Part shown: positions 73 through 21,464 of the stretch, one piece after another
Numbering within the stretch: position 1 is the stretch's first letter
How the letters are laid out: each line of letters begins with the position of its first letter
NCBI RefSeq assembly: GCF_003334305.1
Contig: NZ_QOWS01000034.1
Strand: one strand, 5' to 3'
From: Escherichia coli
GTDB taxonomy: Bacteria; Pseudomonadota; Gammaproteobacteria; Enterobacterales; Enterobacteriaceae
Length of the DNA stretch: 35,359 bases
Made by a program: the position numbers and the translations under genes
Notes under the pieces: model-generated
Seen by the model: the letters and a program-made list of their open reading frames with translations, nothing else
Databases searched by the model: none
Told to the model about the DNA's origin: nothing

Positions 73-124
73 CAAATTAAGCAGTAAGCCGGTCATAAAA
101 CCGGTGGTTGTAAAAGAATTCGGT

Positions 125-201
125 GGAGCGGTAGTTCAGTCGGTTAGAATACCTGCCTGTCACGCAGGGGGTCGCGGGTTCGAGTCCCGTCCGTTCCGCC
201 A
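125..201 (+). tRNA. aspU: tRNA-Asp (GUC anticodon)
   Basis: 77-nt sequence GGAGCGGTAGTTCAGTCGGTTAGAATACCTGCCTGTCACGCAGGGGGTCGCGGGTTCGAGTCCCGTCCGTTCCGCCA, with a GTC anticodon in the CTGTCAC loop. Lies just 3' of the 5S rRNA as in an rrn operon distal tRNA. Confidence 0.95.
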
Positions 202-210
202 CTTATTAAG

Positions 211-241
211 AAGCCTCGAGTTAACGCTCGAGGTTTTTTTT
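211..241 (+). terminator. Rho-independent terminator after the rrn-distal tRNA
   Basis: Inverted repeat CCTCGAG-TTAACG-CTCGAGG followed by a run of 8 T. Confidence 0.65.
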
Positions 242-363
242 CGTCTGTATATCTATTATTGCCAGAATCGCAAAAATCCTCTGCATTTTACGCTCTTTTT
301 CCTCAACAGTCTGAAGCCCATAATCACCTCAGTTAACGAAAATAGCATTAAAAGAGGCATATT

Positions 364-2078: not shown

Positions 2079-2267
2079 TTTTGCTCCTGTTGCAAAATAG
2101 AAGAGATATTTTGAATTTATTTGTCATTAAACCATCAGGATGCGTGATATGTCATCCGATTTAATGTTCTCAACAATGAGCAAAATTCTGACCGGTGTAA
2201 GCACTTGCTTACATAACAATATACAATTGCTCGTTGAAAGAGTGAGCTAAAATCCCTATAACAGTAG

Positions 2268-3119
<852 letters not shown>

Positions 3120-3196
3120 GGTATGTCAGGTCTGCCACAGGGCAGACCAAAGTTTGGCGCTGCCCTTTTATACTCAAATAACAAAAGGACAGCGCA

Positions 3197-3967
3197 ATGA
3201 CAACACAATCCCACCATGACCACGTAGAAAAGCAGTTTAGCTCGCAGGCCAGTGAGTATTTAACCAGTACCGTACATGCATCCGGGCGAGATTTACAGCG
3301 CCTGGCGGTGCGTCTGGCTGATTATCCTGATACAAGTGTACTTGATATGGGCTGCGGAGCAGGGCATGCCAGCTTTGTCGCTGCGCAGAACGTGAGCGCG
3401 GTGGTGGCGTATGACTTATCTGCCCAAATGCTGGATGTCGTGGCACAAGCTGCCGAAGCCCGGCAACTGAAAAATATCACCACCCGCCAGGGTTATGCCG
3501 AAAGTCTGCCATTTGCCGATAACGCATTTGATATTGTTATCAGCCGTTATTCTGCCCATCACTGGCATGATGTTGGTGCAGCACTGCGAGAAGTGAATAG
3601 GATATTGAAACCTGGCGGTAGGATGATTGTGATGGACGTAATGTCTCCGGGTCATCCAGTGCGCGACATCTGGTTACAGACGGTAGAAGCATTACGCGAT
3701 ACCTCTCACGTACGAAACTACGCCAGCGGTGAGTGGTTGAGGTTAATCAATGAAGCCAATCTGATAGTTGATAATTTAATTACAGATAAGTTACCGCTGG
3801 AATTTTCTTCATGGGTCGCGAGAATGCGTACGCCAGAAGCGTTAGTAGACGCTATTCGCATTTACCAACAGAGCGCATCGACAGAGGTGAGAACGTATTT
3901 TGCCTTGCAGAATGATGGCTCTTTCACCAGTGATATCATCATGGTAGAAGCACATAAAGCAGCATAA
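3197..3967 (+). CDS. yafE: SAM-dependent methyltransferase
   Basis: 256-aa ORF with a class I methyltransferase motif I (VLDMGCGAGH) and a downstream acidic motif. Synteny. Confidence 0.82.
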   Translation: MTTQSHHDHVEKQFSSQASEYLTSTVHASGRDLQRLAVRLADYPDTSVLDMGCGAGHASFVAAQNVSAVVAYDLSAQMLDVVAQAAEARQLKNITTRQGYAESLPFADNAFDIVISRYSAHHWHDVGAALREVNRILKPGGRMIVMDVMSPGHPVRDIWLQTVEALRDTSHVRNYASGEWLRLINEANLIVDNLITDKLPLEFSSWVARMRTPEALVDAIRIYQQSASTEVRTYFALQNDGSFTSDIIMVEAHKAA

Positions 3968-3970
3968 ATA

Positions 3971-4004
3971 AAAAAGGCACCGGGGGAATCGGTGCCTTTT
4001 TATT
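3971..4004. terminator. Bidirectional Rho-independent terminator between convergent yafE and mltD
   Basis: A-run, GGCACCG-GGGGAATC-CGGTGCC hairpin, then T-run. Sits between the yafE stop and the mltD stop. Confidence 0.65.
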
Positions 4005-4014
4005 ATCTGGTTTG

Positions 4015-5373
4015 TCAGGAATCTGGCATGTTGTTGTTTTTCACAAACAACGTCAGCTTATCGCCTGGTTGCAGATTCGCAGTGTCGCTGTTCCAGCGCA
4101 TCACATCTTTGATGTTCACGCCGTGGCGTTTAGCAATGCTTGAAAGCGAATCGCCTTTGCGCACACGATACGTAATGCTATCGCTGTTGTTTGCCAGTCG
4201 CTGTGCGCTACTGCCTGCACCAATCGTCAAACTTTGGCCTGGCTTCAGCTTAGATCCGCGCAGTTTGTTCCACTGCTGCAAATCTTTGGTGCTTACGCCG
4301 AGACGTGAAGCGATACTTGAAAGCGTGTCGCCAGAGCGTACGGTGTAAACACGGCTGTTAAGCGGCGTATTGTCGGCAACCAGCGTCGACTGTACAGCAG
4401 CAATTTCGCCTGAAGCGAGAGATTCACGCAGTTGATCTGCATGCTTCTTTGGCACCATCACGTATTGCGGACCACTTGCGCCCAGCGTGGAGCCTTTCAC
4501 GCCAGCGTTGAATGTCTTCAGCTTGCTGACGGAAATCCCCGCCATATCTGCAACCTTCGCCATTTCAACCGGGCTGCTCAGGTGCACACGCGCCAGAGCA
4601 CGGCTTTCATCGGTCGTTGGCAGACGTACGCCATAACGCTTGCTGTTTTTGAGAATATCACTCAATGCCAGCATTTTAGGCACGTACTGCTTCGTTTCCT
4701 GCGGCAACGGTAACGACCAGAAGTCCGTGGATTTCCCACGCGCTTTGTTCGTTTTAATTGCCTTCATGACCCGACCTTCGCCGCTGTTATAAGCCGCTAC
4801 GGTCAGAAGCCAGTCGCCGTCAAACATCTTGTTCAGACGCTGCATCATGTTCAGCGCGGCAGTTGTTGAAGCAACAACATCGCGACGCGCGTCATAATTG
4901 CGGGTCTGTTTCAAACCATAATTGCGCCCCGTGCTCGGAATGATCTGCCAGATGCCTGCGGCATTGGCGCCAGACGTTGCGTGAGGATCAAAAGCGCTCT
5001 CCACTATGGGTAGTAGTACCAGTTCCATAGGCATGTTACGTTTTTTAACTTGCCCGGCTATCCAGTACATATACGGCTCTGCCCGTAAAGTTACATCGTG
5101 GAGATAGCTCTTATTGCGTAAATATTTCTGTTTCTGTTCGCGAATCCGGTCATTTTCCGGAATTCCCATCTTTAGCTCGTCGCCAATGAAAGCCCACAAG
5201 TCACCATCTGGCGCGATAGACGTCCCATCGTCCATCCATCGTGCCTGACTTGTAAACTTTGCTGCTTCCCCTTGACCAGCTGCAGAAAGGCTCTGTGCGT
5301 GCTGTTGAACGTTGCCGGTACTCTGGCAACCCACGAGCAGGACAGAGGCGAGTAATATCGCTTTTGCCTTCAT
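4015..5373 (-). CDS. mltD: Membrane-bound lytic murein transglycosylase D (lipoprotein with LysM repeats)
   Basis: 452-aa ORF. N-terminal lipoprotein signal (LLASVLLVGCQS), and two C-terminal repeats of the LysM-like pattern (YTVRSGDTLSSIASRLGV and YRVRKGDSLSSIAKRHGV). Synteny. Confidence 0.88.
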   Translation of the reverse strand: MKAKAILLASVLLVGCQSTGNVQQHAQSLSAAGQGEAAKFTSQARWMDDGTSIAPDGDLWAFIGDELKMGIPENDRIREQKQKYLRNKSYLHDVTLRAEPYMYWIAGQVKKRNMPMELVLLPIVESAFDPHATSGANAAGIWQIIPSTGRNYGLKQTRNYDARRDVVASTTAALNMMQRLNKMFDGDWLLTVAAYNSGEGRVMKAIKTNKARGKSTDFWSLPLPQETKQYVPKMLALSDILKNSKRYGVRLPTTDESRALARVHLSSPVEMAKVADMAGISVSKLKTFNAGVKGSTLGASGPQYVMVPKKHADQLRESLASGEIAAVQSTLVADNTPLNSRVYTVRSGDTLSSIASRLGVSTKDLQQWNKLRGSKLKPGQSLTIGAGSSAQRLANNSDSITYRVRKGDSLSSIAKRHGVNIKDVMRWNSDTANLQPGDKLTLFVKNNNMPDS

Positions 5374-5444
5374 GTGTGTGTCAATAGTTGCTTAAAAGAC
5401 GACCGATCATAACGGCGAACGGAGCCGATGACAAGAAAGTTTTA

Positions 5445-6203
<759 letters not shown>

Positions 6204-6233
6204 TTACCTCTTAGTGTGAAACGGAAGGTTGTG

Positions 6234-6956
6234 ATGAAACCGGCAAGAGTCCCTCAAACTGTCGTGGCTCCTGATCGCTGGGGCGATTTGCCCTGGGGAG
6301 AGCTTTATCGCAAGGCGCTGGAGCGCCAGCTCAACCCGTGGTTCACTAAAATGTATGGTTTTCATCTGCTTAAGATTGGCAATTTAAGCGCAGAAATCAA
6401 TTGCGAAGCGTGCGCGGTTTCTCATCAAGTGAATGTTTCTGCGCAAGGAATGCCCGTCCAGGTGCAGGCGGATCCACTTCATCTTCCTTTTGCCGATAAA
6501 TCCGTTGATGTTTGTCTACTGGCACATACATTGCCGTGGTGCACCGATCCGCATCGTTTATTGCGTGAAACCGATCGGGTATTGATTGATGATGGCTGGC
6601 TGGTGATTAGTGGCTTCAATCCCATTAGTTTAATGGGATTACGCAAACTTGTGCCGGTATTGCGAAAAACCTCGCCCTATAACAGCCGGATGTTTACTCT
6701 GATGCGGCAACTGGACTGGCTCTCTTTGTTGAATTTTGAAGTGCTGCACGCCAGCCGTTTCCACGTTCTCCCGTGGAACAAACACGGAGGAAAACTATTG
6801 AATGCGCATATTCCTGCGCTTGGTTGCTTACAACTTATTGTTGCCCGGAAACGGACTATTCCTTTAACGCTAAACCCGATGAAACAGAGTAAAAACAAGC
6901 CACGAATTCGCCAGGCGGTTGGAGCCACCCGGCAATGTCGTAAACCACAAGCTTAA
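6234..6956 (+). CDS. yafS: SAM-dependent methyltransferase-like protein
   Basis: ORF track starts at a GTG at 6216. The ATG at 6234 (MKPARVP...) is the more plausible start. Synteny with K-12 yafS between gloB and rnhA. Confidence 0.75.
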
Positions 6957-7420
6957 ACTTCGACTTGGTAGCCCGTATCTTCCAGTGTGGGATTCATTGC
7001 CGCAGCACGAGCCAGTTCATCACAGCGTTCGTTTTCCGGGTGTCCGGCATGGCCTTTAACCCATTCCCATTTGATTTGATGTTGCCCTAGGGCAGCATCA
7101 AGACGTTGCCAGAGATCGACATTTTTTACTGGTTTTTTGTCTGCGGTTTTCCAGCCACGTTTTTTCCAGTTATGGATCCACTGGGTGATACCCTGGCGGA
7201 CATACTGGCTGTCGGTACTCAAAATGACTTCGCAATGTTCTTTTAACGCCTCCAGCGCGACAATAGCGGCCATCAACTCCATACGGTTGTTGGTGGTGCG
7301 GGTGTAGCCTGCGCTAAAGGTTTTCTCGCGTCCGCGATAGCGTAAAATAGCGCCGTAACCCCCAGGTCCTGGATTGCCCAGACACGAACCATCGGTGAAA
7401 ATTTCTACCTGTTTAAGCAT
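6953..7420 (-). CDS. rnhA: Ribonuclease HI
   Basis: 155-aa product starting [23 protein letters not shown] (RNase H fold with catalytic DxE...D). Track ORF is N-terminally over-extended; start trimmed to the ATG at 7418..7420. Divergent from dnaQ. Confidence 0.9.
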
Positions 7421-7484
7421 CTCTGGTAGACTTCCTGTAATTGAATCGAACTGTAAAACGATAAGTCTGACATAAATGACCGCT

Positions 7485-8216
7485 ATGAGCACTGCAATTA
7501 CACGCCAGATCGTTCTCGATACCGAAACCACCGGTATGAACCAGATTGGTGCGCACTATGAAGGCCACAAGATCATTGAGATTGGTGCCGTTGAAGTGGT
7601 GAACCGTCGCCTGACGGGCAATAACTTCCATGTTTATCTCAAACCCGATCGGCTGGTGGATCCGGAAGCCTTTGGCGTACATGGTATTGCCGATGAATTT
7701 TTGCTCGATAAGCCCACGTTTGCCGAAGTAGCCGATGAGTTCATGGACTATATCCGCGGCGCGGAGTTGGTGATCCATAACGCAGCGTTCGATATCGGCT
7801 TTATGGACTACGAGTTTTCGTTGCTTAAGCGCGATATTCCGAAGACCAATACCTTCTGTAAGGTCACCGATAGCCTTGCGGTGGCGAGGAAAATGTTTCC
7901 TGGTAAGCGCAACAGCCTCGATGCGTTATGTGCCCGCTACGAAATAGATAACAGTAAACGAACGCTACACGGGGCATTACTCGATGCACAGATCCTTGCG
8001 GAAGTTTATCTGGCGATGACCGGTGGTCAAACGTCGATGGCTTTTGCGATGGAAGGAGAGACACAGCAGCAACAAGGTGAAGCAACAATTCAGCGCATTG
8101 TACGTCAGGCAAGTAAGTTACGCGTTGTTTTTGCGACAGATGAAGAGCTTGCAGCTCATGAAGCCCGTCTTGATCTGGTGGAGAAGAAGGGCGGAAGCTG
8201 CCTCTGGCGGGCATAA
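7485..8216 (+). CDS. dnaQ: DNA polymerase III epsilon subunit (3'-5' proofreading exonuclease)
   Basis: DEDDh exonuclease motifs ([14 protein letters not shown]). Start placed at the second in-frame ATG (MSTAITRQ); the ATG at 7476 is an alternative. Classic divergent rnhA-dnaQ arrangement. Confidence 0.9.
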
Positions 8217-8291
8217 ATACCTGTAAAAGGCGCTAAAAATAGCGGCTTGGGCGATTTTTGCAGCAAACGATTCAAAAGATGAGAAAAACCG

Positions 8292-8320
8292 TTGACGAAG
8301 GGTGAGGCAATCCGTAATAT
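8292..8320 (+). promoter_or_regulatory. Putative sigma70 promoter for tRNA-Asp (aspV)
   Basis: TTGACG (-35), 17-nt spacer, TAATAT (-10), then a GC-rich discriminator (TCGCCTCG) as in stringently controlled stable-RNA promoters, about 28 nt upstream of the tRNA. Confidence 0.45.
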
Positions 8321-8348
8321 TCGCCTCGTTCCCAACGGAACACAACGC

Positions 8349-8425
8349 GGAGCGGTAGTTCAGTCGGTTAGAATACCTGCCTGTCACGCAGGGGGTCGCG
8401 GGTTCGAGTCCCGTCCGTTCCGCCA
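8349..8425 (+). tRNA. aspV: tRNA-Asp (GUC anticodon)
   Basis: Sequence identical to the tRNA-Asp at 125..201. Stand-alone tRNA downstream of dnaQ, as for aspV in K-12. Confidence 0.95.
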
Positions 8426-8453
8426 AATTCACTCATGAAAATGAGTTCAGAGA

Positions 8454-8488
8454 ACCGCAAGATTTTTAATTTTGCGGTTTTTTTTGCA
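8454..8488 (+). terminator. Rho-independent terminator after aspV
   Basis: ACCGCAA-GATTTTTAATTT-TGCGGT hairpin followed by a run of about 9 T. Confidence 0.6.
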
Positions 8489-8755
8489 TTTAAATCCCGC
8501 TATTTCTTCGGTCTATGGTTTTGTTATGCTGTAAATGTGTTAATCACATATGGTAGACCATATCATTAATATTTAATCATACTATCGAATCATTCAATTT
8601 AAATATATTTGAATGTTATGATTTTCATTTTTCTATTGATTTAATGAATTTATATATACTGTTATTTTTGTTTGTTCTGATTCAAGTGGAGTATATAATT
8701 AAAAATCGTTAGCTAAACATTACCATGATTATGACAGGCGAGGGAGTGTCCAATT

Positions 8756-9541
8756 ATGAATTCAAAAAAGCTTTGTTGCATATGTGTGTTATTCTCGCTG
8801 CTTGCAGGATGTGCCTCTGAATCTTCTATTGATGAAAAGAAGAAAAAAGCTCAAGTCACACAAAGTAATATTAATAAAAACACTCCCCAGCAACTGACAG
8901 ACAAAGATTTATTCGGTAATGAAACCACTCTGGCCGTATCCGAAGAGGATATTCAAGCTGCGCTTGATGGAGATGAGTTCCGCGTTCCCCTTAATTCTCC
9001 TGTAATACTTGTTCAATCCGGCAACCGCGCACCGGAAACCATTATGCAGGAGGAGATGCGAAAATATTATACTGTTTCCACATTCTCTGGTATCCCGGAC
9101 AGGCAAAAGCCTCTGACTTGTAACAAAAACAAAGATAAAAATGAGAACGAGGATGTTGCCAGTGCTGAGAATATGAACTGGATGCAGGCACTGCGTTTTG
9201 TGGCTGCAAAAGGACATCAGAAAGCGATTATTGTTTACCAGGATACATTGCAGACAGGAAAATATGACTCTGCGCTGAAATCAACAGTATGGTCCGACTA
9301 TAAAAATGAAAAACTCACCGACGCTATCTCCCTGCGCTACCTGGTACGTTTCACGCTGGTGGATGTGGCAACAGGTGAGTGGGCTACCTGGTCGCCGGTG
9401 AATTATGAATATAAAGTGCTTCCACCATTGCCCGACAAGAATGAAGCCAGTACGACTGATATGACAGAGCAGCAAATCATGCAACTTAAGCAAAAGACCT
9501 ATAAAGCGATGGTAAAAGATTTGGTTAACCGCTATCAATAA
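8756..9541 (+). CDS. yafT: Uncharacterised lipoprotein (YafT-like)
   Basis: 261-aa ORF with a lipobox (LLAGCAS). Same size and position as K-12 yafT just after aspV. AT-rich. Confidence 0.7.
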
Positions 9542-9677
9542 TAAATTATATCTGCCGCCAGGAATTTCTGGCGGCAATAATACAAAATTCTTTGCATAAG
9601 AAATTTTTCTTGACAAAGACAGTGCAAGAAAGGACATGGAATCCGGAGTTAAAAACTGTTTGTTTTAGAATATTTAA

Positions 9678-10157
9678 TTATTTAACTGCTGAATCTTCCT
9701 TGCGAGAAATATATTCATTATTACATTTCATGCCATTTTTAATATAGATTGCTCCTGGGAAAATCCCCGTATTATTACCGCAGGGGTGATAATTAGCATT
9801 GACATATCCTGTGACAAAAGGAGCTATTAAAGGTGCTATTACGATAGCTATTAGTAAAAATATAAGAGTTAGCTGTATTGTTATGTCTGTGGCGAAATTG
9901 ACTACCTTCGTTTTTTTGATTAAGAATGATTTTATTATCGTAAGTAAAATTACATGAACATTTAAAAAGGAAAACGACATGAAACCAAAGCACAGAATCA
10001 ACATTCTCCAATCATAAAATATTTCCGTGGAGCATTTTATTATTGAATATAGAGGTTTAACTCCGGTAAAAAACAAAGAAGCATTGAATGCAGGGAAAAA
10101 TAATATGGCCATAAAAAACATCGAAAGAAACTCTTTTAATTTAACATGTAAACGCAT
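9678..10157 (-). CDS. ykfM: Small multi-pass inner-membrane protein (YkfM-like); candidate immunity protein
   Basis: 159-aa ORF with about three strongly hydrophobic segments. Starts 9 bp after the stop of the upstream glycine-zipper protein. Very AT-rich. Same size as K-12 ykfM. Confidence 0.6.
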   Translation of the reverse strand: MRLHVKLKEFLSMFFMAILFFPAFNASLFFTGVKPLYSIIKCSTEIFYDWRMLILCFGFMSFSFLNVHVILLTIIKSFLIKKTKVVNFATDITIQLTLIFLLIAIVIAPLIAPFVTGYVNANYHPCGNNTGIFPGAIYIKNGMKCNNEYISRKEDSAVK

Positions 10158-10166
10158 GGTTAATCC

Positions 10167-11096
10167 TCATATCACGGGTGGAGTGTTAAGAACATACATA
10201 AATGGAGTCATGTTTTCCCTTTTCCATTTATCAAGTTCCTGTTGCCGTTTTAGTCCATCTCTAATTGCATATTTTAATTTTTCTGATAAATGGCATTGAG
10301 CATCGATTTCATTTAAAACAACTGTACACACTATCCCTGTCAGTAAAATTGCTCCTCCGACAAGAATTACTGGAAAGCCAAAGCTAACACAGGCAAAAGA
10401 AGCCAGGCTTCCAATAGCGGTTGCAACACCACCGGCTATAACTGCTTTGGCCACATCCATTGAAAAATCGCCAAGAAAATTAACCAGATCTCGCTCTGAA
10501 CTCATAATAAATTCTATGGTTCTCCAGGCTACTGAAAACCAGATACAGAACTTAACTCCTTTTATTGATTCAGATAAAGCTCCTCGCCAGCCAATAGCGA
10601 GTTCCAGAACTTGAGGCGCTCGTGAAGAGAAAATATATTTACCGAGCTTTTCTAAAAGCCAGGGGCTGGATGTTGTGATTTTTATATATTTCTCTCCAAG
10701 TATTTCAAAGTAACTTGCTTTTGTATACTTTAAGGCATTAAGGTTAAATATAATTTTCCCATTGTCATCAAACTCAGTCATTAATTTACTCGCGTTAACT
10801 AACCAGGCGAGTGTATCTTTTATACCTGAAGGATGTGTAGTGATAAAATGAATGTAATCAAATGATGTTATTGGGCTGAGTATTTTTTTTGCAACATCAA
10901 GTGTCAAGAGAATAACATGATGAGTGTTCTGATGCCTTAACTCATCAATGAGTGGGACGTCGTTAAGATAAGGGTGCTGAGGTACTAGCTGGTTTATCGG
11001 CTGAGCCCCCCGAAGAATGTCACCCACATAATCAGCCCACTGTGCATTCTGTGTGTTGTTGTTATTCCTTAAACCAGCCATTTTATCTCTCCGCAA
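10167..11096 (-). CDS. Hypothetical protein with C-terminal glycine-zipper hydrophobic region; candidate Hcp-associated membrane-active T6SS effector
   Basis: 309-aa ORF (start may be the ATG at 11081, MAGLRNNN). Soluble N-terminal part followed by AVIAGGVATAIGSLASFACVSFGFPVILVGGAILLTGIVCTVV. Begins 28 bp after the hcp-like gene and is followed 9 bp later by the membrane protein. Confidence 0.5.
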   Translation of the reverse strand: MRRDKMAGLRNNNNTQNAQWADYVGDILRGAQPINQLVPQHPYLNDVPLIDELRHQNTHHVILLTLDVAKKILSPITSFDYIHFITTHPSGIKDTLAWLVNASKLMTEFDDNGKIIFNLNALKYTKASYFEILGEKYIKITTSSPWLLEKLGKYIFSSRAPQVLELAIGWRGALSESIKGVKFCIWFSVAWRTIEFIMSSERDLVNFLGDFSMDVAKAVIAGGVATAIGSLASFACVSFGFPVILVGGAILLTGIVCTVVLNEIDAQCHLSEKLKYAIRDGLKRQQELDKWKRENMTPFMYVLNTPPVI

Positions 11097-11124
11097 TAGT
11101 AATTTATTATGTTATTACAGTAAG

Positions 11125-11607
11125 TTACTGTACACGATCCTGCCATTTACTCATTGCATTCGTACCGGCTAACGTATGCTCCCAGGAAATATCTTCATAA
11201 ATAAAGGCAATTCTCTCCTGTGGTTCCAGTTCTTTTTCCAGGACAGCATGCGGTGTGACAAAATCAATACTTGATATTCGGGCTTTTGACAGATTTATTT
11301 TATAATAAGGCTGGTAAATACCCGCTTTACTGGTTCGGTAGAGTATAAATTCACATATTGCCATTTTTTCATTGTCACTAAGTGCTTTTGCCAGCAATGG
11401 TGAGGATTTATCAACCGGTTTGGTGATAATTAATTCATGATGATTGACATTTTGACTTCTTGAGATGGAATGCATTAACGCATAAACCATGATCTGATCT
11501 TTATGTTCTGGCTGCGCTTTGTTTCCGACAGAATCAAGCGTTGAGCAACCTGCTGAAATTAGCCCTTGTGTCTCTCCACTCAAAGATAAATAACTTATAT
11601 TTGCCAT
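11125..11607 (-). CDS. Hcp-family protein (second, orphan hcp outside the hcp-vgrG operon)
   Basis: 160-aa ORF. Shares several spaced motifs with the Hcp at 31693..32211: Y-S-GxTQG-I-AG, DSVGN, KPxDKSSPLL versus KPFIF...AVPLM, WEH near the C-terminus. Confidence 0.7.
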   Translation of the reverse strand: MANISYLSLSGETQGLISAGCSTLDSVGNKAQPEHKDQIMVYALMHSISRSQNVNHHELIITKPVDKSSPLLAKALSDNEKMAICEFILYRTSKAGIYQPYYKINLSKARISSIDFVTPHAVLEKELEPQERIAFIYEDISWEHTLAGTNAMSKWQDRVQ

Positions 11608-11630
11608 GATAATCTCCTTTAATTAAATAA

Positions 11631-12983
11631 TTATTTTTCGGCCGTGGTACCGGTTGCCGCCTCTGGCATGACGTTATTCTTCAGCAGCAGCCAGCGGCTT
11701 AACACGCCTTCGAGTCGCTCATTAATTTGTTTTTCCAGCGCATCTGTATTCTGCTTCTGCGCACGGGCATCATGGTACTGCGTCAACAGAGACTCAACGG
11801 GTGTTTCCTGCCCCAGTCCCCGCTCCGCCTGCCAGATGACATTTTTGATATAGGAAAGGGTTAGTCCCTCTTTCTCGCGCTGCATCACTAGATCTGCAAA
11901 AGCATGTAAGTCCTGGCGGGTCTGCAACCAGCCACGCAACTGCGGGCTACTCTGTGCGCGGGTTTTGAGTGCCTCATTCCATTGTGTCGAGGCCTGTTGC
12001 TGTTGCAGGCTTTCCGGCCAGCGACTGTCGGCAACACGCATCATCTGCATCCCGGTTTCCAGCGGCTGTACCGGGGAGGTATCAAGAAGTTGTTGCAGCC
12101 TGCGCTCATAGTTTTCGAGTTCAGGTGAGGCCATCCACACCGTTGCTGCGCCCTGAGCGGTGTCGTTAACCTGTAACAGTTGCTGCTGCACCGGATAGAC
12201 CTGCCACCACCACAATGCTGAGGCGACAGCCACTGAACAGGCGATCCCTGCGATAAACCCTCTTACCGTACTGCCTTGATTTATCACACTGGCCTGTGGG
12301 GGATTCTCTGTCAGACTGCGAACTTCCACTTTCATCTCAGGCAGGCCGGGCAGGGGAGGCACTACCGCTTCTGGTGTGGAAGATGCCTGTGTTTCCGGGG
12401 CATAAATCAGCGTTCTGACCGTGGTCTGTGCGGCGTTCTCAGTGTTACTCTTCAGCTGGGGTCCAAGCCGTTTACGCGTGTTCTGCATAAAATAGAGCAG
12501 ATTCTCCACGCGCGGAACGCGCTTCAGTTCCACCTGCTGGAGCTTATCGCAGATAAGCTGCAATGCCCGCTCTGTGCGGTAGATCAGTGGTAGGTCGGAT
12601 TCCGCAAAGGAGATTTGCTGACGCAGAATATTGCCGGTTCGGGAGTTAAACCAGTCCAGCATTTCAGTACGCGCCGGGCCGCCCTGCGGCCAGAACTTAT
12701 CCCAGTCGTGGCTTACCATTGCCGCCAGCAGTTCCGCACCTTCGCAGAATCCCGCCAGTCCCTGTGTCCGTGTCCGGGCAAGCGTATAGTAGGTGGCGGT
12801 GTGTAAATCCACACCGTTGGCTTTAAAAATCGCCAGCGCCAGCGACTCCACCAGTTTCCAGTTCAGCTCAGGCTGTGACGGGTGGCTGGCTTTGTTTATT
12901 TCCTCGCGGATGGCGCTGAATTCCGGCAGCCCGCGCGGGTCACTGCCGGTAACGATAGTTTGTGTCAGTACGTTACTATTCAT
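11631..12983 (-). CDS. T6SS accessory membrane protein with ImpA_N-like N-terminal domain (VasL-like)
   Basis: N-terminal region resembles the ImpA-N/TssA family. Central hydrophobic segment (FIAGIACSVAVASALWWW). Start trimmed to the ATG at 12981..12983, which has a GGAGG ribosome-binding site and sits 10 bp after the tssM stop; the track ORF over-extends into tssM. Confidence 0.55.
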   Translation of the reverse strand: MNSNVLTQTIVTGSDPRGLPEFSAIREEINKASHPSQPELNWKLVESLALAIFKANGVDLHTATYYTLARTRTQGLAGFCEGAELLAAMVSHDWDKFWPQGGPARTEMLDWFNSRTGNILRQQISFAESDLPLIYRTERALQLICDKLQQVELKRVPRVENLLYFMQNTRKRLGPQLKSNTENAAQTTVRTLIYAPETQASSTPEAVVPPLPGLPEMKVEVRSLTENPPQASVINQGSTVRGFIAGIACSVAVASALWWWQVYPVQQQLLQVNDTAQGAATVWMASPELENYERRLQQLLDTSPVQPLETGMQMMRVADSRWPESLQQQQASTQWNEALKTRAQSSPQLRGWLQTRQDLHAFADLVMQREKEGLTLSYIKNVIWQAERGLGQETPVESLLTQYHDARAQKQNTDALEKQINERLEGVLSRWLLLKNNVMPEAATGTTAEK

Positions 12984-12993
12984 CCCTGCCTCC

Positions 12994-15900
12994 TCAGTAC
13001 AGTGTGTCTGACAGACCAAACTGGCTGAACAACCCACCGCTGAACGGGTTATCTTCCGTGTCGGTATGCACACGGTAGGTCATCGCGCCACCGTCCACGC
13101 TAAAGCGCACGGTAAAGTTGCCATCCTGTACTCCGGTCAGTTGTCCGGCCCCGAACAGGCGGAACTGCGCCCACGGCCCGCTGAAGCTGATACTGCGCGG
13201 CGCGTTGCCGCTGGTGCCGATGAGCGTCAGCTTACTTTCGTTGCCTTCGCGCATGTTGTTAGGCCAGACCAGATGGGCGGTATAGTTACGGCCCTGGCTG
13301 TAATCGACTAACTGACCGTCAAGGTTCAGTACACTGCGGCGTTTATTGCCTGAAAGCGATACCGTTTCCACGGCAAAGGATGTTCCCAGACCGTTCTGTT
13401 TGCTGAAGAAGATGTCACGGATTTTCTGCGCAGTTTCCAGTTGCGCAATAATATCTTCGCGAATAATGACGTTGTTATCGCCATCCTCCAGACTCAGGTC
13501 ATTATCGATAAACAGCTTCAGGTTCTGCTGGTAGAAGGTATCCAGTATGCCATCCGGTTTAAAGAAGCGTTCGAAGGCATCCAGTGAGGCATCCTGTGCA
13601 GAACGCGGATTAAACGGATAGTTATTTGCCAGTTGCTCGTTAAACGGTTTCACCACGCTGTCGCGCCAGTCCACTTCCATATAATGAACAGCCTCCACCA
13701 TCACCACATGCCAGGCCTGGTCAGCCAGCCTGCCAACCCAGCGGTTGAGCGGAGCAGGCAGCGTTTTTGCCATCTGGCGGGTGGCGAATATCGGATCGCT
13801 GCTGTTCTGATCAAGCCGTAACTGCACGGCTTTCAGCGCCGATTTCCCTGGTACAGGCGCGTTCTGGATTGCCAGCAGGTAGCGGTGCAACTCGGTGAGT
13901 TGCTGATACACGGCCTGCATCGTGCTTTCTTTGTCTTTCTGTACTGCCAGGGTACTGTTTTCCGGGGCGAATTCATGCCCGAGGCGGGTGAGTAACTGGT
14001 AATCCGGCTCTGCCAGGGCTTCCTCCCGTTCTTTGGCAGAGAGTTTTTCAGAAAAGACGCCTGGCTGTGTGTTGTCACGCAGCACGGTCAGCGCCCGCTG
14101 CAAAGGCTGGTCGCCGCTGATAACCTGCTCCAGCGCCCCGGTCAGTTGTCCGATGGACTCAAAATTGCGGATATTCAGATTGTCCATCCCAGCCCGCCAG
14201 GTGGCGGTGTAGTCGCTGATATACTGCTCGGTCAACTGGTGCTGGATTTCCGCACGGTCGGCGTCACTGTATTTCACATTGCGGGTGAGGTTAAGTACCC
14301 AGGAATCCATCGCTGTCAGTTCAACCAGTTCATCGCGCTGTTTTACAAAATAGCTTTGCAGGCCGTAGCGGGTGATAAACTGTGGAACAACCAGTTTGTT
14401 GTCATCGGCAGATGTAAACACCTGGTCAAAGGTTGGCCCTACCTGGTCACGCAGATTGAGGTCGGCAGGAAGAACGCCCAGCGCCCGCGTTTTCAGGCTC
14501 TGGTAAACCCGCTGGTAGACAGGCAGTTTGCTCAGTTCTTTCTGTGCTGATACCACGGGCTTGTCATATGGCGTCCAGCGGCTGATGGCGTCACCGTCGC
14601 CCGCCTGACGCTCTGCATGCCAGTCAGTATGAGCCAGCGCGTAGTCAAGATGGGACATCAGTTGTGCCTGGATATCGCGCTGGCCGTGGAATTTTTCGCT
14701 CCAGCGTTTTGCCATATACTGCTTCACCACCTCATTGTTACGTCCGCTTTTGTCCTCCAGCATTCGCATTACGCGCAGCACCGCGAGTTTTTCTTCACTC
14801 TCCGGCGGCGCGGCGTTCATCGCTTTGACCAGCCCGTTAAACAGCGAGGGCAGGTAACGTTGCTCCAGCAGTTGCAGATAGGTCTGTTCCACATAAGGCC
14901 CGATACGTCGTCCCTGGTACAGTCCCATATCGGCCAGACGGCTGCGGTCGCCCCAGTCGCCATAGGCCAGTGTGGCATCGCGTACCGGGTTCAGGAGCGG
15001 CAGTTGCAGGTTGCCAAAGTCATCTTCCCCCTGCGGAGGCGGCACGTCCATAAAGGCTTTGGCCTGCTTAAGCACGGTGATGCCGGACTGATAGTTACCG
15101 TTGTAATAGTGATGCCAGCCGGTGATGAGCAGCAGTGCTGCCACGCCGCCTGTGGCAGAGAAAACCGTCAGGCGGCGACGGGAACGTATCAGCCAGGCGC
15201 GGCTCTCTGTTGCCAGATTAGGCTCTGCGAGTAATGCCTGCGGGAACAGGCTGCGGGTGAAATAAGGCGCGGTGTCCACCAGGGGCCAGGACGCCAGTGG
15301 GTTATTGCCCAGCCGGTACTGGCGGGCGGCAGACTGGGTGAATATATCATCCATCTGCCCACGCTGAAGCGAAGAGGTGAGATAGACACCACGCAGCATA
15401 ACGTTCATATTTTCGCCATCAAGCAGACCCTCAAGCAGTGACACCAGCGGTTCACGGCTTCCCTGCATCTGGCGGGAAAAACTGAATAAAGACGCGCGGG
15501 TGTGAGTCTGAGCGACCATCAGATCCGGCAACGCCAGATTCATTCGATCCACCCATGTCTGCCAGAAAGCATTCAACTCTGTTCGCCAGTCATCATTTTC
15601 ATGGGCACGGCGGGTGAACGTGACGCCCAGAATCGCATCGCGATCCTGTCTGTTGAGTGACTGGAACAGGGCGGCAAAACCCTGTAATAAATCAAGCCGG
15701 GTCAGTACCACGTAAACCGGTAACTGGCAGTGAAGATGCTGGCGTATATCCTGTAAGCGGCTGCGCAGCGTCTGTAACAGATGCTCGCGGCGGCGTTTGT
15801 CTGCGGTCAGCAGATCGGGTAAATCGAGTGTCAGAATAATCCCGTTCAGCGGCTGGCGCGCGCGCTTTTCTTTCAGCCAGCCGAGGGCATGTTCCCACAG

Positions 15901-16518
15901 ACGGCGATGCAGGATATCCGCATCAGCGGGAGCGCAGAGTGTGCCGTCGATATCAAAGATCACCGCCTGTTTACCGACATGGGGCGTGAGGTACAGGCGT
16001 TGTTCTGCGCCGCGTGCGCCCTCCGGGGCATAAATAATGTCGGACGGAAACCCCTCGCGCAGCAGTGTCGTTTTGCCACTGCCCGCCGGGCCGATGACCA
16101 TATACCACGGCAACTGCCACAGGAAACGGCGGTTGTCGAGATGGCGTTGCAGGCGCAGCAGCCAGCGGTCGAGGTAACGCTGCTGGGCGTTCAGTTCCAC
16201 ACTGAGCGGATCAATGGCTTCCTCGCGCTGTTGTTTTTGCTGTTTTTCAAGCTGTTGCAGGCGCTTCATTACCCGGACGGTAAGCCACACCAGGGCAATA
16301 ATCCCCCACGCCGCCGTTGCCAGCCAGCGGTTCGCCAGTGGTTTGAGCCACTGCTCTTCATACAGCGTCCACGTCGGGCCTTTCCACCAGATCCAAACCA
16401 GCAGGAAAATCCACGCCAGTATCAGCAGCCAGAATGCAGAGACTTTAAATCGGGGCATCGCCGGGCGCAGGGCTGATTTGAGTCCGCTGAATAGTCGGGG
16501 TGTTGGTAATCTGAACAC
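12994..16518 (-). CDS. tssM: T6SS membrane complex protein TssM (IcmF family)
   Basis: 1174-aa ORF with N-terminal transmembrane segments, a Walker A P-loop (GPAGSGKTTLL) and a long periplasmic C-terminal region. Position and size typical of IcmF/TssM. Confidence 0.9.
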   Translation of the reverse strand: MFRLPTPRLFSGLKSALRPAMPRFKVSAFWLLILAWIFLLVWIWWKGPTWTLYEEQWLKPLANRWLATAAWGIIALVWLTVRVMKRLQQLEKQQKQQREEAIDPLSVELNAQQRYLDRWLLRLQRHLDNRRFLWQLPWYMVIGPAGSGKTTLLREGFPSDIIYAPEGARGAEQRLYLTPHVGKQAVIFDIDGTLCAPADADILHRRLWEHALGWLKEKRARQPLNGIILTLDLPDLLTADKRRREHLLQTLRSRLQDIRQHLHCQLPVYVVLTRLDLLQGFAALFQSLNRQDRDAILGVTFTRRAHENDDWRTELNAFWQTWVDRMNLALPDLMVAQTHTRASLFSFSRQMQGSREPLVSLLEGLLDGENMNVMLRGVYLTSSLQRGQMDDIFTQSAARQYRLGNNPLASWPLVDTAPYFTRSLFPQALLAEPNLATESRAWLIRSRRRLTVFSATGGVAALLLITGWHHYYNGNYQSGITVLKQAKAFMDVPPPQGEDDFGNLQLPLLNPVRDATLAYGDWGDRSRLADMGLYQGRRIGPYVEQTYLQLLEQRYLPSLFNGLVKAMNAAPPESEEKLAVLRVMRMLEDKSGRNNEVVKQYMAKRWSEKFHGQRDIQAQLMSHLDYALAHTDWHAERQAGDGDAISRWTPYDKPVVSAQKELSKLPVYQRVYQSLKTRALGVLPADLNLRDQVGPTFDQVFTSADDNKLVVPQFITRYGLQSYFVKQRDELVELTAMDSWVLNLTRNVKYSDADRAEIQHQLTEQYISDYTATWRAGMDNLNIRNFESIGQLTGALEQVISGDQPLQRALTVLRDNTQPGVFSEKLSAKEREEALAEPDYQLLTRLGHEFAPENSTLAVQKDKESTMQAVYQQLTELHRYLLAIQNAPVPGKSALKAVQLRLDQNSSDPIFATRQMAKTLPAPLNRWVGRLADQAWHVVMVEAVHYMEVDWRDSVVKPFNEQLANNYPFNPRSAQDASLDAFERFFKPDGILDTFYQQNLKLFIDNDLSLEDGDNNVIIREDIIAQLETAQKIRDIFFSKQNGLGTSFAVETVSLSGNKRRSVLNLDGQLVDYSQGRNYTAHLVWPNNMREGNESKLTLIGTSGNAPRSISFSGPWAQFRLFGAGQLTGVQDGNFTVRFSVDGGAMTYRVHTDTEDNPFSGGLFSQFGLSDTLY

Positions 16519-16536
16519 AAAAACTCCTGTTCTCTT

Positions 16537-17952
16537 TTATTGTTCTGCCGTGAATTTTTGTTCTAGCTGCTCAAGCAGGGACGGCTCCCAGTCTGCCACC
16601 ATCATCTGCAATCCCATCCTGAACAACATCCTGTACTGCTGTTGCGCAAGCTGTACCAGCCCCGCCTCTTCCATAAGCTGCGCGCCAAAATACTGCCGGT
16701 GGAACTGGTCGCGGGGTTCACCGGCGGGTAACGTATCCAGATACCGTAAGGCGGCTTCCAGCCCCTGCTCATCAAAACACAACCGCGCAGCCTGAATATC
16801 TTCATTACTCACCTGTATGACTGGCGCGGACTGGTTACCTGGCTGATTTGCAAGCCATTGCTTCGTTTTTTCAGAAACAAACGGTGTGTGGTCGTTAAAC
16901 AGAAGATCAGCGAGCGCGGGCAGACGGCCAAGAAAGGAAACGACTTCATCGCGGATGGCATCGGCTACAGCGGTATAACCAAGACGGTGCGCCGTCTGTG
17001 CAGAAATGTAGTGACCGTCCAGCCAGTAGGGTGCCAGCAGTACGCTTTTTTCCACCTGCTGCCACAGCTCCATATCCGCGCTGGCAAGCCGGGACTGGTA
17101 ATCCGCCACCATATCGGCAGAGACCGCAGCCAGTGGAGTACGTCTATCGCTTTCCGCCTGGGGCGTACTGGTGATGGTTAGCCACAGGGCATGGCGACGC
17201 AGGCGATAGCCCTGCGGCGATTCCGGTTGGCGCTCGCATAAAATGGCCGCCACTTTTAACAGTGTGTCGCGCCAGGTTTTGTCGTCGTGACTGTCGATGG
17301 CGATCTGTGGAGTCGGAGTACTGGTATGCGTCACGCCGCTTTCAGACGTGGCGATCGTCTGTGGTGAACTACTGGAGGCCGCCGGAGTGGGGGCTGGAGC
17401 CGGTGCCGCACGATTAAACGCACGCTGGTAAAGGGCAAAAAGATCATCAGTAGCCTGTGCTAGTTCCGGGGCATTATGTGACTGCCAGCATTGCGCCAGT
17501 TTCGCCAGTTCACCTAGCAGCGCATCGCGCTGCGCTGTGGCGGCGTTCTGTGAAAAAGCGTCAATACCTGTTTCGAAGCGTTTAATAACCTGGCTGGCAA
17601 AGCGTTTTTTATGTGCCATATTCTGCGGCGCGGCTACCGCCCAGTAATGCTCCACATACAGCGCCAGCAGGCGCAAGGCCAGGAGCGGATCACCGGCATG
17701 TTGCAGGGTTCTCAGCAGATGCGCCAGCAGGCGAAAATCCTTACTCTCCGAAGCCAGAAGGACCAGTCCCCGGTGCTGGAGTTCAGGGATATCCAGCTGG
17801 CTGTGCGCCAGCGATCCCAGTTTGACAATCCCACCGTCGATATACTCCCAGTCCGGGTTGTCGTCCTTCAGCGCCGATGCCAGTTTCTCTTCCGGCAGGT
17901 TTTCCAGCAGGTGCGATACCCAGACATTCGGATCGCGTAAGTCCATTGCCAT
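16537..17952 (-). CDS. tssA: T6SS protein TssA (ImpA family)
   Basis: About 470-aa product. Size, soluble character and position next to tssM fit TssA. Start placed at the ATG at 17950..17952, just after the stop of the upstream gene; the ATG at 17946 is an alternative. Confidence 0.7.
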   Translation of the reverse strand: MAMDLRDPNVWVSHLLENLPEEKLASALKDDNPDWEYIDGGIVKLGSLAHSQLDIPELQHRGLVLLASESKDFRLLAHLLRTLQHAGDPLLALRLLALYVEHYWAVAAPQNMAHKKRFASQVIKRFETGIDAFSQNAATAQRDALLGELAKLAQCWQSHNAPELAQATDDLFALYQRAFNRAAPAPAPTPAASSSSPQTIATSESGVTHTSTPTPQIAIDSHDDKTWRDTLLKVAAILCERQPESPQGYRLRRHALWLTITSTPQAESDRRTPLAAVSADMVADYQSRLASADMELWQQVEKSVLLAPYWLDGHYISAQTAHRLGYTAVADAIRDEVVSFLGRLPALADLLFNDHTPFVSEKTKQWLANQPGNQSAPVIQVSNEDIQAARLCFDEQGLEAALRYLDTLPAGEPRDQFHRQYFGAQLMEEAGLVQLAQQQYRMLFRMGLQMMVADWEPSLLEQLEQKFTAEQ

Positions 17953-17956
17953 ATTT

Positions 17957-18700
17957 TTATTCTCCCGCCCAGTGGCAGGCATCGCGCAGGGGAGCAATCG
18001 CCCTTGCCAGCCCGTCAATGTTAAAGGTCAGCTTTCCGGCGGCGTTGTCTGCGCCGGTATCCACCATCAGCGTTTTTGCGCCGAACAGTTGCTTAATTTC
18101 ATCAATCCCGGACAGCCCCCGGCTGGATTCCAGCAGAGTGCCGTTCTCGCGCACAAACCAGTGGCTGCGCAATGCCCGGCTGTCGGCATTCAGGGTGACG
18201 GCGATATCATGAACATCCAGAGGGTGCATCAGCGCCACCTGCATCCGGGTGATATTGTCCACGCAACTGAACATCAGCACCGGGCGCGGCGGAACATGGC
18301 CGATAGCCGGGGTGGTTATCACCACCGTCGGGCGTTCCCCCGGCACCTGCGTCACCAGCAGCTCTGTGGTGTTGCCCTGGCGGCGTTTTTCCTGCTCCGT
18401 AGCGCGGGTCCAGGCTTCGCCCACAAAGCTGGCTTTGACCAGTGCCCCGTTAAATCCTGACGGGGACAGTGGTGCCAGCAGGCGGTCGTAACAGTCAAGC
18501 CGCTCCAGCGCCGCCGTCTCCTGCCGACAGGACTGCATGGCATGTAACGTGGCAGTCGCATCCGGCGGGGTCGCAGTGGCGACGGCTACCTCCACACCGG
18601 CCAGTGACGATGTTTCTGCGGGCGCGGCACTGGCGGGTAAGCCCGCCACCAGGCCTGCGATAAACCATCCTGTCTGCCGGAAAACGCGCAACCTGCTCAT
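17957..18700 (-). CDS. T6SS-associated exported protein (VasI/TagO-like)
   Basis: 247-aa ORF with an N-terminal signal-peptide-like segment (GWFIAGLVAGLPASAAPA). Start overlaps the clpV stop by 4 bp. Family assignment is from memory and tentative. Confidence 0.5.
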   Translation of the reverse strand: MSRLRVFRQTGWFIAGLVAGLPASAAPAETSSLAGVEVAVATATPPDATATLHAMQSCRQETAALERLDCYDRLLAPLSPSGFNGALVKASFVGEAWTRATEQEKRRQGNTTELLVTQVPGERPTVVITTPAIGHVPPRPVLMFSCVDNITRMQVALMHPLDVHDIAVTLNADSRALRSHWFVRENGTLLESSRGLSGIDEIKQLFGAKTLMVDTGADNAAGKLTFNIDGLARAIAPLRDACHWAGE

Positions 18701-21456: not shown

Positions 21457-21464
21457 AAACGTCC

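Follow-up and report, generated by a model that had tools for sequence, protein, structure and literature searches.

A T6SS island linked to the tRNA gene aspV is known from several E. coli strains, as PAI I of LF82, Ec042-0210-0226 of EAEC 042 and the Z0250-Z0267 cluster of O157:H7. In the accessible text on LF82 its island is described as one unit of 35 kb with 50.1% GC, and throughout the available portions of the LF82, EAEC 042 and O157:H7 papers the island is presented as a unit, with the terminal hcp-effector-immunity slot and its alleles left undissected. In a different genus, the Salmonella T6SS islands SPI-19, SPI-20 and SPI-21 have an uneven G+C content (Blondel et al., 2009, BMC Genomics 10:354, PMC2907695). 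In low-GC regions, where the content falls to 34.5% in SPI-19 and to about 42% in SPI-20, Hcp-like and unknown proteins are encoded by genes that had no assigned function in 2009, compared with 55–60% in the core. SPI-20 is located close to aspV and lacks obvious direct repeats (PMC2907695). The Tme effectors and their Tmi immunity partners (Fridman et al., 2020, Nat Commun 11:1085, PMC7046647) are defined by a C-terminal domain with a nearly invariant DxxK followed by a TM helix flanked by another D, and by a multi-TM, DUF1240-like gene directly downstream. The members that have been characterised, Tme1 and Tme2, come from Vibrio parahaemolyticus, whereas the E. coli member is known here from sequence.

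The window, that is, the whole stretch of 35,359 nt of E. coli DNA analysed here, carries the aspV-linked island: aspV lies downstream of dnaQ, the core set is full, and the RefSeq annotation of a 99.7% identical strain lists tssA-M, tagH, vasI, vasL, two hcp, vgrG and Rhs. With the LF82, EAEC 042 and O157:H7 islands the window shares the locus, two hcp genes, tssA together with the TssA-like vasL, tagH (FHA), tssH, vgrG and Rhs. We read the AT-rich block beside aspV, with a probability of about 0.8, as the distal accessory end of this island, composed of yafT and an exchangeable hcp-tme-ykfM cassette. Low-GC, Hcp-linked patches in T6SS islands and the Tme protein found here have already been published, and the mosaic is thus of a known kind.

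The initial annotation had noted by eye an AT-rich segment between the upstream genes and the T6SS core, and this was borne out quantitatively. GC content was 36.9% over positions 8426–11620, compared with 48.5% over 1–8348 (Mann-Whitney on non-overlapping 200-nt windows, p = 6e-7) and 55.6% over 11621–31000 (p = 1e-9). When the whole window was segmented by maximum-likelihood binary splitting, blind to the coordinates of that annotation, the strongest split fell at 11638/11639 (2dlnL 306) and the second at 8424/8425 (2dlnL 135), the highest value over 20 shuffles being 13. The left change point is the 3' end of tRNA-Asp aspV, and the right one falls at the hcp/vasL junction, between the start of hcp (11607) and the stop side of vasL (from 11631). 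GC3 was 0.29–0.32 in ykfM, tme and hcp, 0.43 in yafT, 0.36–0.56 in the upstream genes and 0.53–0.72 in the T6SS core. Synonymous codon usage resolved three classes, with the AT-rich genes differing from housekeeping genes (chi2 = 146, df 41, p = 9e-14) and from the T6SS core (p = 2e-63), and the core differing from housekeeping genes (p = 4e-44). The lack of any discontinuity in GC and codon usage, named beforehand as the outcome that would overturn the mosaic, was therefore not observed. Since yafT, at 42.7% GC, has a codon usage nearest to that of housekeeping genes, the extreme class consists only of ykfM, tme, hcp and the intergenic DNA. The GC-normalised dinucleotide signature of the block, which is only 3.2 kb long, scored 96 against housekeeping DNA (null maximum 87.5) and 72.1 against the core (null maximum 72.4). 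At this length the signature did not separate the blocks convincingly, and a distinct genome signature is not claimed. Low GC is also seen in gloB, a genuine housekeeping gene (40%, GC3 0.36), so composition is by itself weak evidence for foreign origin.

At its tRNA end, the block follows the tRNA-Asp (GTC) gene aspV (8349..8425, plus strand), identified by ARAGORN and Rfam RF00005 and coinciding with the segmentation. The intergenic DNA from aspV to yafT (8426..8755) is very AT-rich (27.6% GC) and contains a hairpin and T-run (8449..8483, plus strand), a terminator-like site that is probably the aspV terminator. Islands shared homology in this spacer when they sat at one tRNA type but not across different tRNAs, and the patch 8500–8750 was only 64–82% identical to O157:H7. 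Then follows yafT (8756..9541, plus strand), encoding a lipoprotein with the lipobox LLAGC and showing near-native codon usage. YafT gave nothing significant in a Pfam scan, nothing meaningful in a PDB sequence search and no PADLOC match, and PF25851 YafT is recorded on its Salmonella homologue. Between ykfM and yafT, which converge, a GC-rich hairpin (9552..9577, minus strand), also a terminator-like site, likely marks the end of the minus-strand T6SS transcript. An Rfam scan of the window returned the two tRNAs and nothing else.

The protein that the initial annotation called a glycine-zipper protein is Tme, and yafU of K-12 is the remnant of its 3' end. The gene, tme (10167..11081, minus strand), encodes 304 aa differing at one residue from WP_000908052.1, which is tabulated as a Tme with the domain at 122-277 and E = 3.7e-36 (Fridman et al., 2020, Suppl. 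Data 5, PMC7046647). The domain is recognisable in the motif D209-V-A-K212, a hydrophobic segment spanning 213-261 and D260. Across 25 diverse homologues, aligned here, K212 and D260 were invariant, D209 was at least 90% conserved, and the TM helix was conserved as well. By table entry and motif, the 304-aa protein belongs to the Tme T6SS effector family and is predicted to be membrane-disrupting. As in described Tme/Tmi pairs, the DxxK/TM/D domain is accompanied by a multi-TM, DUF1240-like gene directly downstream; here, hcp also stands directly upstream, an arrangement seen in E. coli, Salmonella and Buttiauxella, and in Rahnella an hcp is adjacent. Among distant homologues, two (P0075 and P0114) carried PAAR above the NCBIfam cut-off and one (P0076) the N-terminal region of the VPA1263 effector (MIX-type). 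A Pfam scan of Tme yielded no significant result and a PDB sequence search nothing meaningful; Pfam on the long homologues P0076 and P0126 added nothing, and PADLOC gave no matches. A literature search returned no report on secretion, toxicity or YkfM neutralisation of the E. coli Tme.

Downstream of tme, after a gap of 9 nt, lies ykfM (9678..10157, minus strand), encoding 159 aa with 3-4 TM segments, a predicted Tmi (DUF1240-like) immunity protein on homology and position. It is YkfM that is tabulated downstream of Tme in the published list (Fridman et al., 2020, Suppl. Data 5, PMC7046647). Scanned directly against Pfam, YkfM had no match and did not reach the DUF1240 model; the family link comes only through the Salmonella protein at the same position, which is 51% identical (E = 5e-48) and carries PF06836 DUF1240. 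Similarity to a Rahnella DUF1240 protein was weak (24% identity), with the common motif YHxC...G.F.G.Y.K...C. YkfM therefore has the position directly downstream of Tme, the number of TM helices within the range of 3-6 and, via its Salmonella homologue, the DUF1240 relationship of a Tmi, and is predicted to protect against the cognate Tme. A literature search on ykfM and yafU returned only unrelated acronyms.

The terminal hcp (11125..11607, minus strand; TIGR03344, 203 bits), a tssD paralogue of 160 aa and 38.5% GC, had been termed an orphan. It instead directly follows vasL in the T6SS gene string, starting 23 nt past it with an AGGAG ribosome-binding site ahead. The TssA-like vasL (11631..12983, minus strand) is the first GC-rich core gene; the right GC change point falls at its 3' end, and its last ~23 codons are inside the exchanged segment described below. 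The gap between hcp and tme is 43 nt, and the string vasL-hcp-tme-ykfM has short gaps and ribosome-binding sites throughout. A scan for terminator-like sites found none between vasL and ykfM and the hairpin after ykfM, while a promoter scan was at chance level, with 12 sites where 11.4 were expected. This spacing suggests that hcp-tme-ykfM may be co-transcribed with the T6SS core. NCBIfam models matched the two Hcp proteins and VasL and nothing else; the core Hcp is encoded at 31693–32211. In amino-acid sequence the terminal Hcp shared 54% identity with its O157:H7 counterpart and 74% with the Salmonella allele linked to Tme; tme thus lies directly downstream of a dedicated hcp whose allele covaries with the cargo. 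Earlier treated as cargo apart from the T6SS, the predicted effector and immunity protein would be a functional part of it.

Comparison among E. coli strains revealed an exchangeable cassette at about 9400..11700, running from the 3' end of yafT through ykfM, tme and hcp into the last vasL codons. Identity profiles and blastn showed that the window and O157:H7 are ~100% identical over 8750–9400 (yafT) and again from ~11700 onward (vasL/tssM), whereas between these flanks homology is lost, the sequences being unrelated or 55–70% identical. VasL and TssM are 99% identical between the two. The O157:H7 cargo in this slot is also AT-rich (34.6% GC), and its proteins had chance-level matches only in NCBIfam. 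In B2-type strains the slot is empty, hcp has 51% GC and the core is a deep allele with 74% nucleotide identity. The gene yafT and the aspV-yafT spacer remain in place in both O157:H7 and B2-type strains, and the segment 8426–11620 is accordingly not present or absent as one unit. K-12 has ykfM, the yafU fragment and an ISAs1 scar. The possibility that K-12 carries a stand-alone islet was rejected; its truncated tme abuts the ISAs1 fragment, indicating a deletion remnant. Among 5426 complete E. coli genomes, the complete Tme cassette was found in 2565, the O157-type cargo in 364 and an empty slot in 579, placing the predicted Tme toxin in ~47% of sequenced E. coli. Core-lineage counts in the same genomes agreed with this census (2919 at ≥95% identity, 577 at 60–80%). 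These comparisons support different histories for cassette and core, as read from their sequences.

The arrangement of yafT beside hcp-vasL-tssM-tssA was found in about ten genera, in which the island sits beside tRNA-Asp, tRNA-Phe or tRNA-Ser at those loci with a tRNA close by. One Salmonella island (locus L005) has the gene order and GC mosaic of the window, and from its gene order and aspV location we infer that it is SPI-20. A low-GC end beside a high-GC core was also present in most other genera, and its recurrence there and in Salmonella makes it a property of the island family and not the outcome of what happened at aspV in E. coli. In all, 17 of the 22 yafT loci that were informative had yafT adjoining hcp-vasL-tssM; yafT also occurs without a nearby T6SS in 3-4 species, so the linkage is strong, not absolute. 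By this gene neighbourhood yafT is the conserved terminal gene of the T6SS island family and moves with the core to different tRNA sites, and its GC stays at 38–45% wherever the island sits. Slot length and hcp GC were negatively correlated across loci that are phylogenetically non-independent (Spearman rho = -0.81). In Buttiauxella brennerae tssM and vasL are separated by an hcp-tme-tmi unit, and Rahnella has a Tme-Tmi pair by an orphan hcp away from any T6SS.

The initial annotation had taken the mosaic to mean at least two independent acquisitions at the tRNA, the AT-rich block being a separate islet at aspV, independent of the core. We consider this very improbable. The part that stands is the difference in history between cassette and core, evident in the O157:H7 swap and the empty B2-type slot, and the part that does not is separate insertion at the tRNA. 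No integrase was found among ORFs of at least 30 aa in 8200–13100 (yafT, ykfM, tme, hcp and short overlapping frames), and a search of the whole window for the 28-nt tRNA-Asp 3' end, allowing up to 3 mismatches, matched nothing beyond the two tRNA genes; by contrast, another strain does carry a genuine integrase-bearing island at aspV. The hcp gene is contiguous with vasL. Comparison of aspV loci did show that the cargo varies among E. coli, yet the limits of the replaced segment are set by yafT and vasL and not by the tRNA. The proposal that yafT is separate tRNA cargo is countered by the same T6SS family lying beside it in about ten genera, and its co-occurrence with the core at tRNA-Phe and tRNA-Ser largely refutes the islet. 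Since yafT accompanies the core at those sites, the cargo lies within a single island. With cargo swapping inside the island and a mosaic shared across genera, the number of acquisitions at the hotspot cannot be counted from composition alone.

The opposite account, a single acquisition of an island with a built-in low-GC end, attributes the AT-richness to intrinsic constraints (membrane-protein amino acids, H-NS-dependent regulation, relaxed selection). It agrees with a mosaic conserved in Salmonella and many genera at different sites, with the steady GC of yafT, and with the low GC of gloB as a resident gene. As an explanation of the block it is nevertheless unlikely, since the shift extends to GC3 and synonymous codon usage, beyond amino-acid content, and since in E. 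coli unrelated cargoes occupy the interval between near-identical flanks. Protein divergence between the Hcp alleles is 46%, as against ~1% for the adjacent core proteins, and empty slots exist. For the cassette, the O157:H7 comparison refutes such an origin; for yafT and the intergenic DNA it is viable.

Under the preferred reading, an accessory end with an exchangeable cassette, the dedicated Hcp allele would carry or chaperone Tme, and the T6SS would inject it into neighbouring bacteria. There the C-terminal DxxK/TM-helix/D domain might enter the inner membrane and dissipate the membrane potential, while YkfM in the inner membrane of the producer would neutralise the toxin. The classical cargo of the Hcp lumen is small, and Tme, at 304 aa (an estimated ~34 kDa), exceeds it, which makes loading through Hcp uncertain. 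On this reading the slot is anchored by the 3' ends of yafT and vasL, and the cassette, Hcp allele included, is swapped as a unit by homologous recombination between these conserved flanks inside the island. Its alternative states in E. coli are another AT-rich cargo (O157:H7), an empty slot (B2-type) or deletion remnants (K-12). Low GC is typical of circulating cargo and linked Hcp alleles in any host or at any tRNA site, which explains why the shift in GC falls where the recombination breakpoint lies.

In polymorphic toxins, such as the C-termini of VgrG, Rhs and CdiA, a lower-GC toxin-immunity unit is swapped via conserved upstream sequence, and immunity genes outlast the lost toxin. The cassette differs from these toxin tips in that the carrier, Hcp, is encoded by a small gene of its own that is replaced in full along with the cargo, and in that the anchors are yafT and vasL. 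It resembles them in the K-12 ykfM beside the yafU fragment, which recalls an orphan immunity gene. We put at about even odds the fuller proposition that Hcp, effector and immunity protein form one allelic unit between the yafT and vasL anchors, implying allele-specific Hcp-cargo matching, and that K-12 has kept ykfM as an orphan immunity gene beside the toxin stump yafU, this gene guarding strains that lack the T6SS against Tme.

The general understanding of T6SS islands is unchanged by these results. The GC step beside the tRNA could be misread as a second insertion, and here it marks the internal effector-cassette slot of a single island. Three E. coli genes with poor annotation gain a coherent interpretation: ykfM is predicted to encode a Tmi immunity protein, yafU is read as what is left of a tme gene, and yafT is the lipoprotein gene at the island end. 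In addition, the census provides a simple typing scheme for the aspV T6SS over the 5426 genomes.

The AT-rich block at 8426–11620 is the accessory end of a single island, composed of a conserved lipoprotein gene (yafT) and an exchangeable Hcp-effector-immunity cassette anchored in yafT and vasL. The 500-nt GC profile showed a trough of 0.32–0.45 at ~8250–11750, with ~0.49 upstream and 0.55–0.63 downstream, and GC by segment was 0.485 (1–8348), 0.369 (8426–11620) and 0.556 (11621–31000). Maximum-likelihood segmentation, run blind to the coordinates of the initial annotation, placed the strongest change points at 11638/11639 (2dlnL 306) and then at 8424/8425 (2dlnL 135), against a maximum of 13 in shuffled sequence. 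The left change point is the final base of tRNA-Asp aspV (8349–8425), while the right one falls at the vasL/hcp junction (23-nt gap). Synonymous codon usage separated the AT-rich genes from the housekeeping genes (p = 9e-14) and from the T6SS core (p = 2e-63), as well as the core from the housekeeping genes (p = 4e-44), and GC3 agreed with this separation. The compositional mosaic claimed in the initial annotation was thus accurate in its coordinates and description. The GC-normalised dinucleotide signature did not decisively separate the blocks at such short length. The codon usage of yafT (42.7% GC) was nearest that of the housekeeping genes, so that the extreme class consists of ykfM, tme, hcp and the spacers.

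The window is E. coli DNA, its 8200–12200 segment matching strain STEC17-190 at 100% identity and an O103:H2 strain at 99.7%. In the RefSeq annotation of a near-identical strain, dnaQ, aspV and yafT (plus strand) were followed on the minus strand by ykfM, a gene for a 304-aa hypothetical protein (tme, 10167–11081), hcp and vasL, onward through tssM, tssA, vasI and tssH to tssB, and then by a second hcp, vgrG and Rhs. The terminal hcp begins 23 nt past the vasL stop with an AGGAG site ahead, tme begins 43 nt after hcp (GGAGAG site), and ykfM 9 nt after tme. A terminator-like hairpin after ykfM (9552–9577, minus strand) was the sole such site found on that strand. Based on these short gaps, ribosome-binding sites and the single hairpin, hcp, tme and ykfM seem to form the end of the T6SS gene string, and hcp is not the orphan it had been taken for. 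Elsewhere in the string, a 74-aa ORF between tssB and tssC (30237–30461; hypothetical in RefSeq) weakly resembled the N-terminal part of a TssC model (TIGR03355 positions 43–82, E = 5e-4), and may derive from the 5' part of tssC by splitting or duplication. The tssH (ClpV) gene, annotated as frameshifted in the O103:H2 strain (L001, 18727–21482), had an intact frame in the window (18697–21570).

The 304-aa protein had no match in Pfam or NCBIfam. Tme is a family of membrane-disrupting T6SS effectors with the motif DxxK / TM helix / D, whose Tmi immunity proteins are DUF1240 or DUF1240-like (Fridman et al. 2020, PMC7046647). WP_000908052.1, which differs from the window protein by one residue, is listed as Tme (domain 122–277, E = 3.7e-36), with Hcp upstream and a YkfM-type 159-aa, 3-TM protein downstream (PMC7046647, Supplementary Data 5); the effector family and a near-identical protein are already catalogued in that study. 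A full HMMER run against 1.84 billion representative proteins returned 144 relatives, the distant ones aligning at query ~120–280, near the C-terminal end of variable-length proteins, some with an N-terminal PAAR domain (above the curated cut-off) or a VPA1263 effector N-terminal region. Aligning 25 diverse members showed K212 and D260 to be invariant and D209 nearly so. YkfM was 51% identical to the positional DUF1240 protein of Salmonella. If Tme of E. coli works like the tested Vibrio members Tme1 and Tme2, the T6SS would deliver it into competitors, probably partnered by the dedicated Hcp allele; Tme would then depolarise the target inner membrane, and YkfM would shield the producer cell. 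Tme is large for a cargo of the Hcp lumen.

Within E. coli, the cassette was exchanged between conserved anchors. The window and O157:H7 were ~100% identical over yafT (8750–9400) and from ~11700 through vasL and tssM, whereas ~9400–11700 had no homology or merely 55–70% identity. In O157:H7, the slot carried ORFs of 73 and 198 aa and a gene for a DUF1311 protein, and this cargo was just as AT-rich (34.6% GC). The terminal Hcp of O157:H7 was only 54% identical to that of the window, compared to 99% for VasL and TssM. The right recombination breakpoint (~11700) and the GC change point (11638) lay within ~60 nt of each other. Cargo of the O157:H7 type (L003, 13833–15181) was also found in Citrobacter youngae (L029, 6560–9717) at 39–49% identity, including DUF1311/LprI-like proteins, and is probably another effector-immunity set. 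B2-type strains had 340 bp separating aspV-yafT from hcp-vasL; the slot lacked cargo, and hcp had 51% GC. The aspV-yafT spacer at 8500–8750, 64–82% identical to O157:H7 between ~100% flanks and 96–100% identical to B2-type strains, forms a micro-mosaic inside the AT-rich block.

Across 5426 complete E. coli genomes, the Tme cassette was complete in 2565 and partial in about 525, the O157-type cassette occurred in 364 and the empty B2-type slot in 579. The T6SS core was present at ≥95% identity in 2919 genomes and at 60–80% identity in 577, so that cassette and core counts were consistent (2565 + 364 ~ 2919; 579 ~ 577).

Besides yafT and ykfM, K-12-like genomes retained the last 357 nt of tme (its 3' part, yafU), joined to an ISAs1 fragment beside yafV. 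Reading this arrangement as a stand-alone islet was rejected, since the truncated, fused tme marks a deletion remnant; the intact ykfM and toxin stump fit the pattern of a retained orphan immunity gene. Another strain had an IS1-mediated deletion spanning yafT to tssC. The K-12-like genomes (L002, L011) also lacked ~196 bp at the yafD-yafE junction (3163–3360), and their yafE was shorter or annotated as partial.

Scanning a YafT alignment against one genome per species returned 23 loci. In 17, belonging to Escherichia, Pseudocitrobacter, Citrobacter, Lelliottia, Buttiauxella, Enterobacter, Phytobacter and Superficieibacter, yafT was convergent with hcp-vasL-tssM-tssA of the same T6SS family, and the nearby tRNA, where present, was tRNA-Asp, tRNA-Phe or tRNA-Ser(GGA). 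In Atlantibacter, yafT lay beside tRNA-Asn, with the vgrG-hcp-tssB-tssC end of a related cluster ~5 kb away; three of the other five loci had no nearby T6SS, one was at a contig end and one had no usable match. This linkage implies that yafT is the island's terminal gene rather than part of the E. coli backbone. Homology across the tRNA-yafT spacer was confined to islands at the same tRNA type. In tRNA-Ser(GGA) islands, this spacer had ~180-nt direct repeats common to different genera (L022, 9194–10000; L023, 9609–10000; L025, 6930–7549), which may be att-related. Across loci, GC was 38–45% for yafT (one exception), 50–61% for the core and 36% to 56% for the terminal hcp, being lowest for hcp in cargo-bearing slots (slot length vs. 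hcp GC, Spearman rho -0.81 over 21 phylogenetically non-independent loci). One Salmonella enterica genome, ordered tssH-vasI-tssA-tssM-vasL-hcp-(Tme homologue)-DUF1240-...-DUF1240-yafT-dnaQ, repeated the entire GC mosaic of the window (core 0.555–0.60, hcp 0.395, tme 0.378, DUF1240 genes 0.26–0.31, yafT 0.426). In Buttiauxella brennerae, hcp-tme-DUF1240-DUF1240 (L021, 10923–15304) took another position in this island family, between tssM and vasL rather than beyond vasL, showing that hcp plus cargo is the mobile unit. In Rahnella bruchi, a Tme homologue and a DUF1240 gene were found beside an orphan hcp, distant from any T6SS core.

The initial annotation ascribed the mosaic to at least two acquisitions at a tRNA hotspot. 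A difference in history between cargo and core was upheld by the O157:H7 cargo swap between ~100% flanks and by the empty B2-type slot. Grouping yafT with the cargo was not supported, as it accompanies the T6SS core at several tRNA sites. Insertion at the tRNA also found no support, with no integrase among the ORFs of the AT-rich block and no second copy of the tRNA 3' end in the window; an integrase-bearing second element at aspV in another strain looked markedly different. Nor can GC contrast alone count acquisitions. The window-type core was about as distant from the B2-type core as from those of other genera (VasL 72–76%, TssM 78–86% identity), the B2-type core being a deep allele (74% nucleotide identity) beside a 96% identical housekeeping flank. 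TssA (16537–17949) was only 81% identical to that of O157:H7, compared to 99% for VasL and TssM and 94% for VasI, which makes tssA a further recombination patch within the core. Recombinational replacement therefore spans the whole island, not the AT-rich end alone.

The AT-rich block is real, well explained and already known in kind. A T6SS island at aspV was described for LF82, EAEC 042 and O157:H7. SPI-19, SPI-20 and SPI-21 were reported to have uneven G+C, their low-GC parts encoding Hcp-like and unknown proteins, and SPI-20 is aspV-linked (PMC2907695). The additions made here are incremental: exact breakpoints matching the GC step, the slot-allele census, evidence that yafT goes with the island at different tRNA sites, and an interpretation of ykfM and yafU in K-12.

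Compositional shifts were also seen outside the block. The housekeeping gene gloB (5445–6200) had 40.2% GC, a GC3 of 0.357 and codon usage nearest the AT-rich class, which cautions against equating low GC with foreign origin; its product was 77% identical to that of Salmonella, compared to 85–94% for the neighboring genes. A second deep AT trough (31000–31700, GC 0.31–0.32) falls in the 696 bp separating the divergent genes tssB (minus) and core hcp (plus), a stretch that presumably regulates the T6SS operons. Within the core, GC stepped from 0.579 (vasL-tssH) to 0.526 (tssL-vgrG) at 21407/21408, near the tssH/tssL junction (2dlnL 48), and downstream of vgrG it jumped to 66.7% where the Rhs gene begins (34640–35359; 2dlnL 55).
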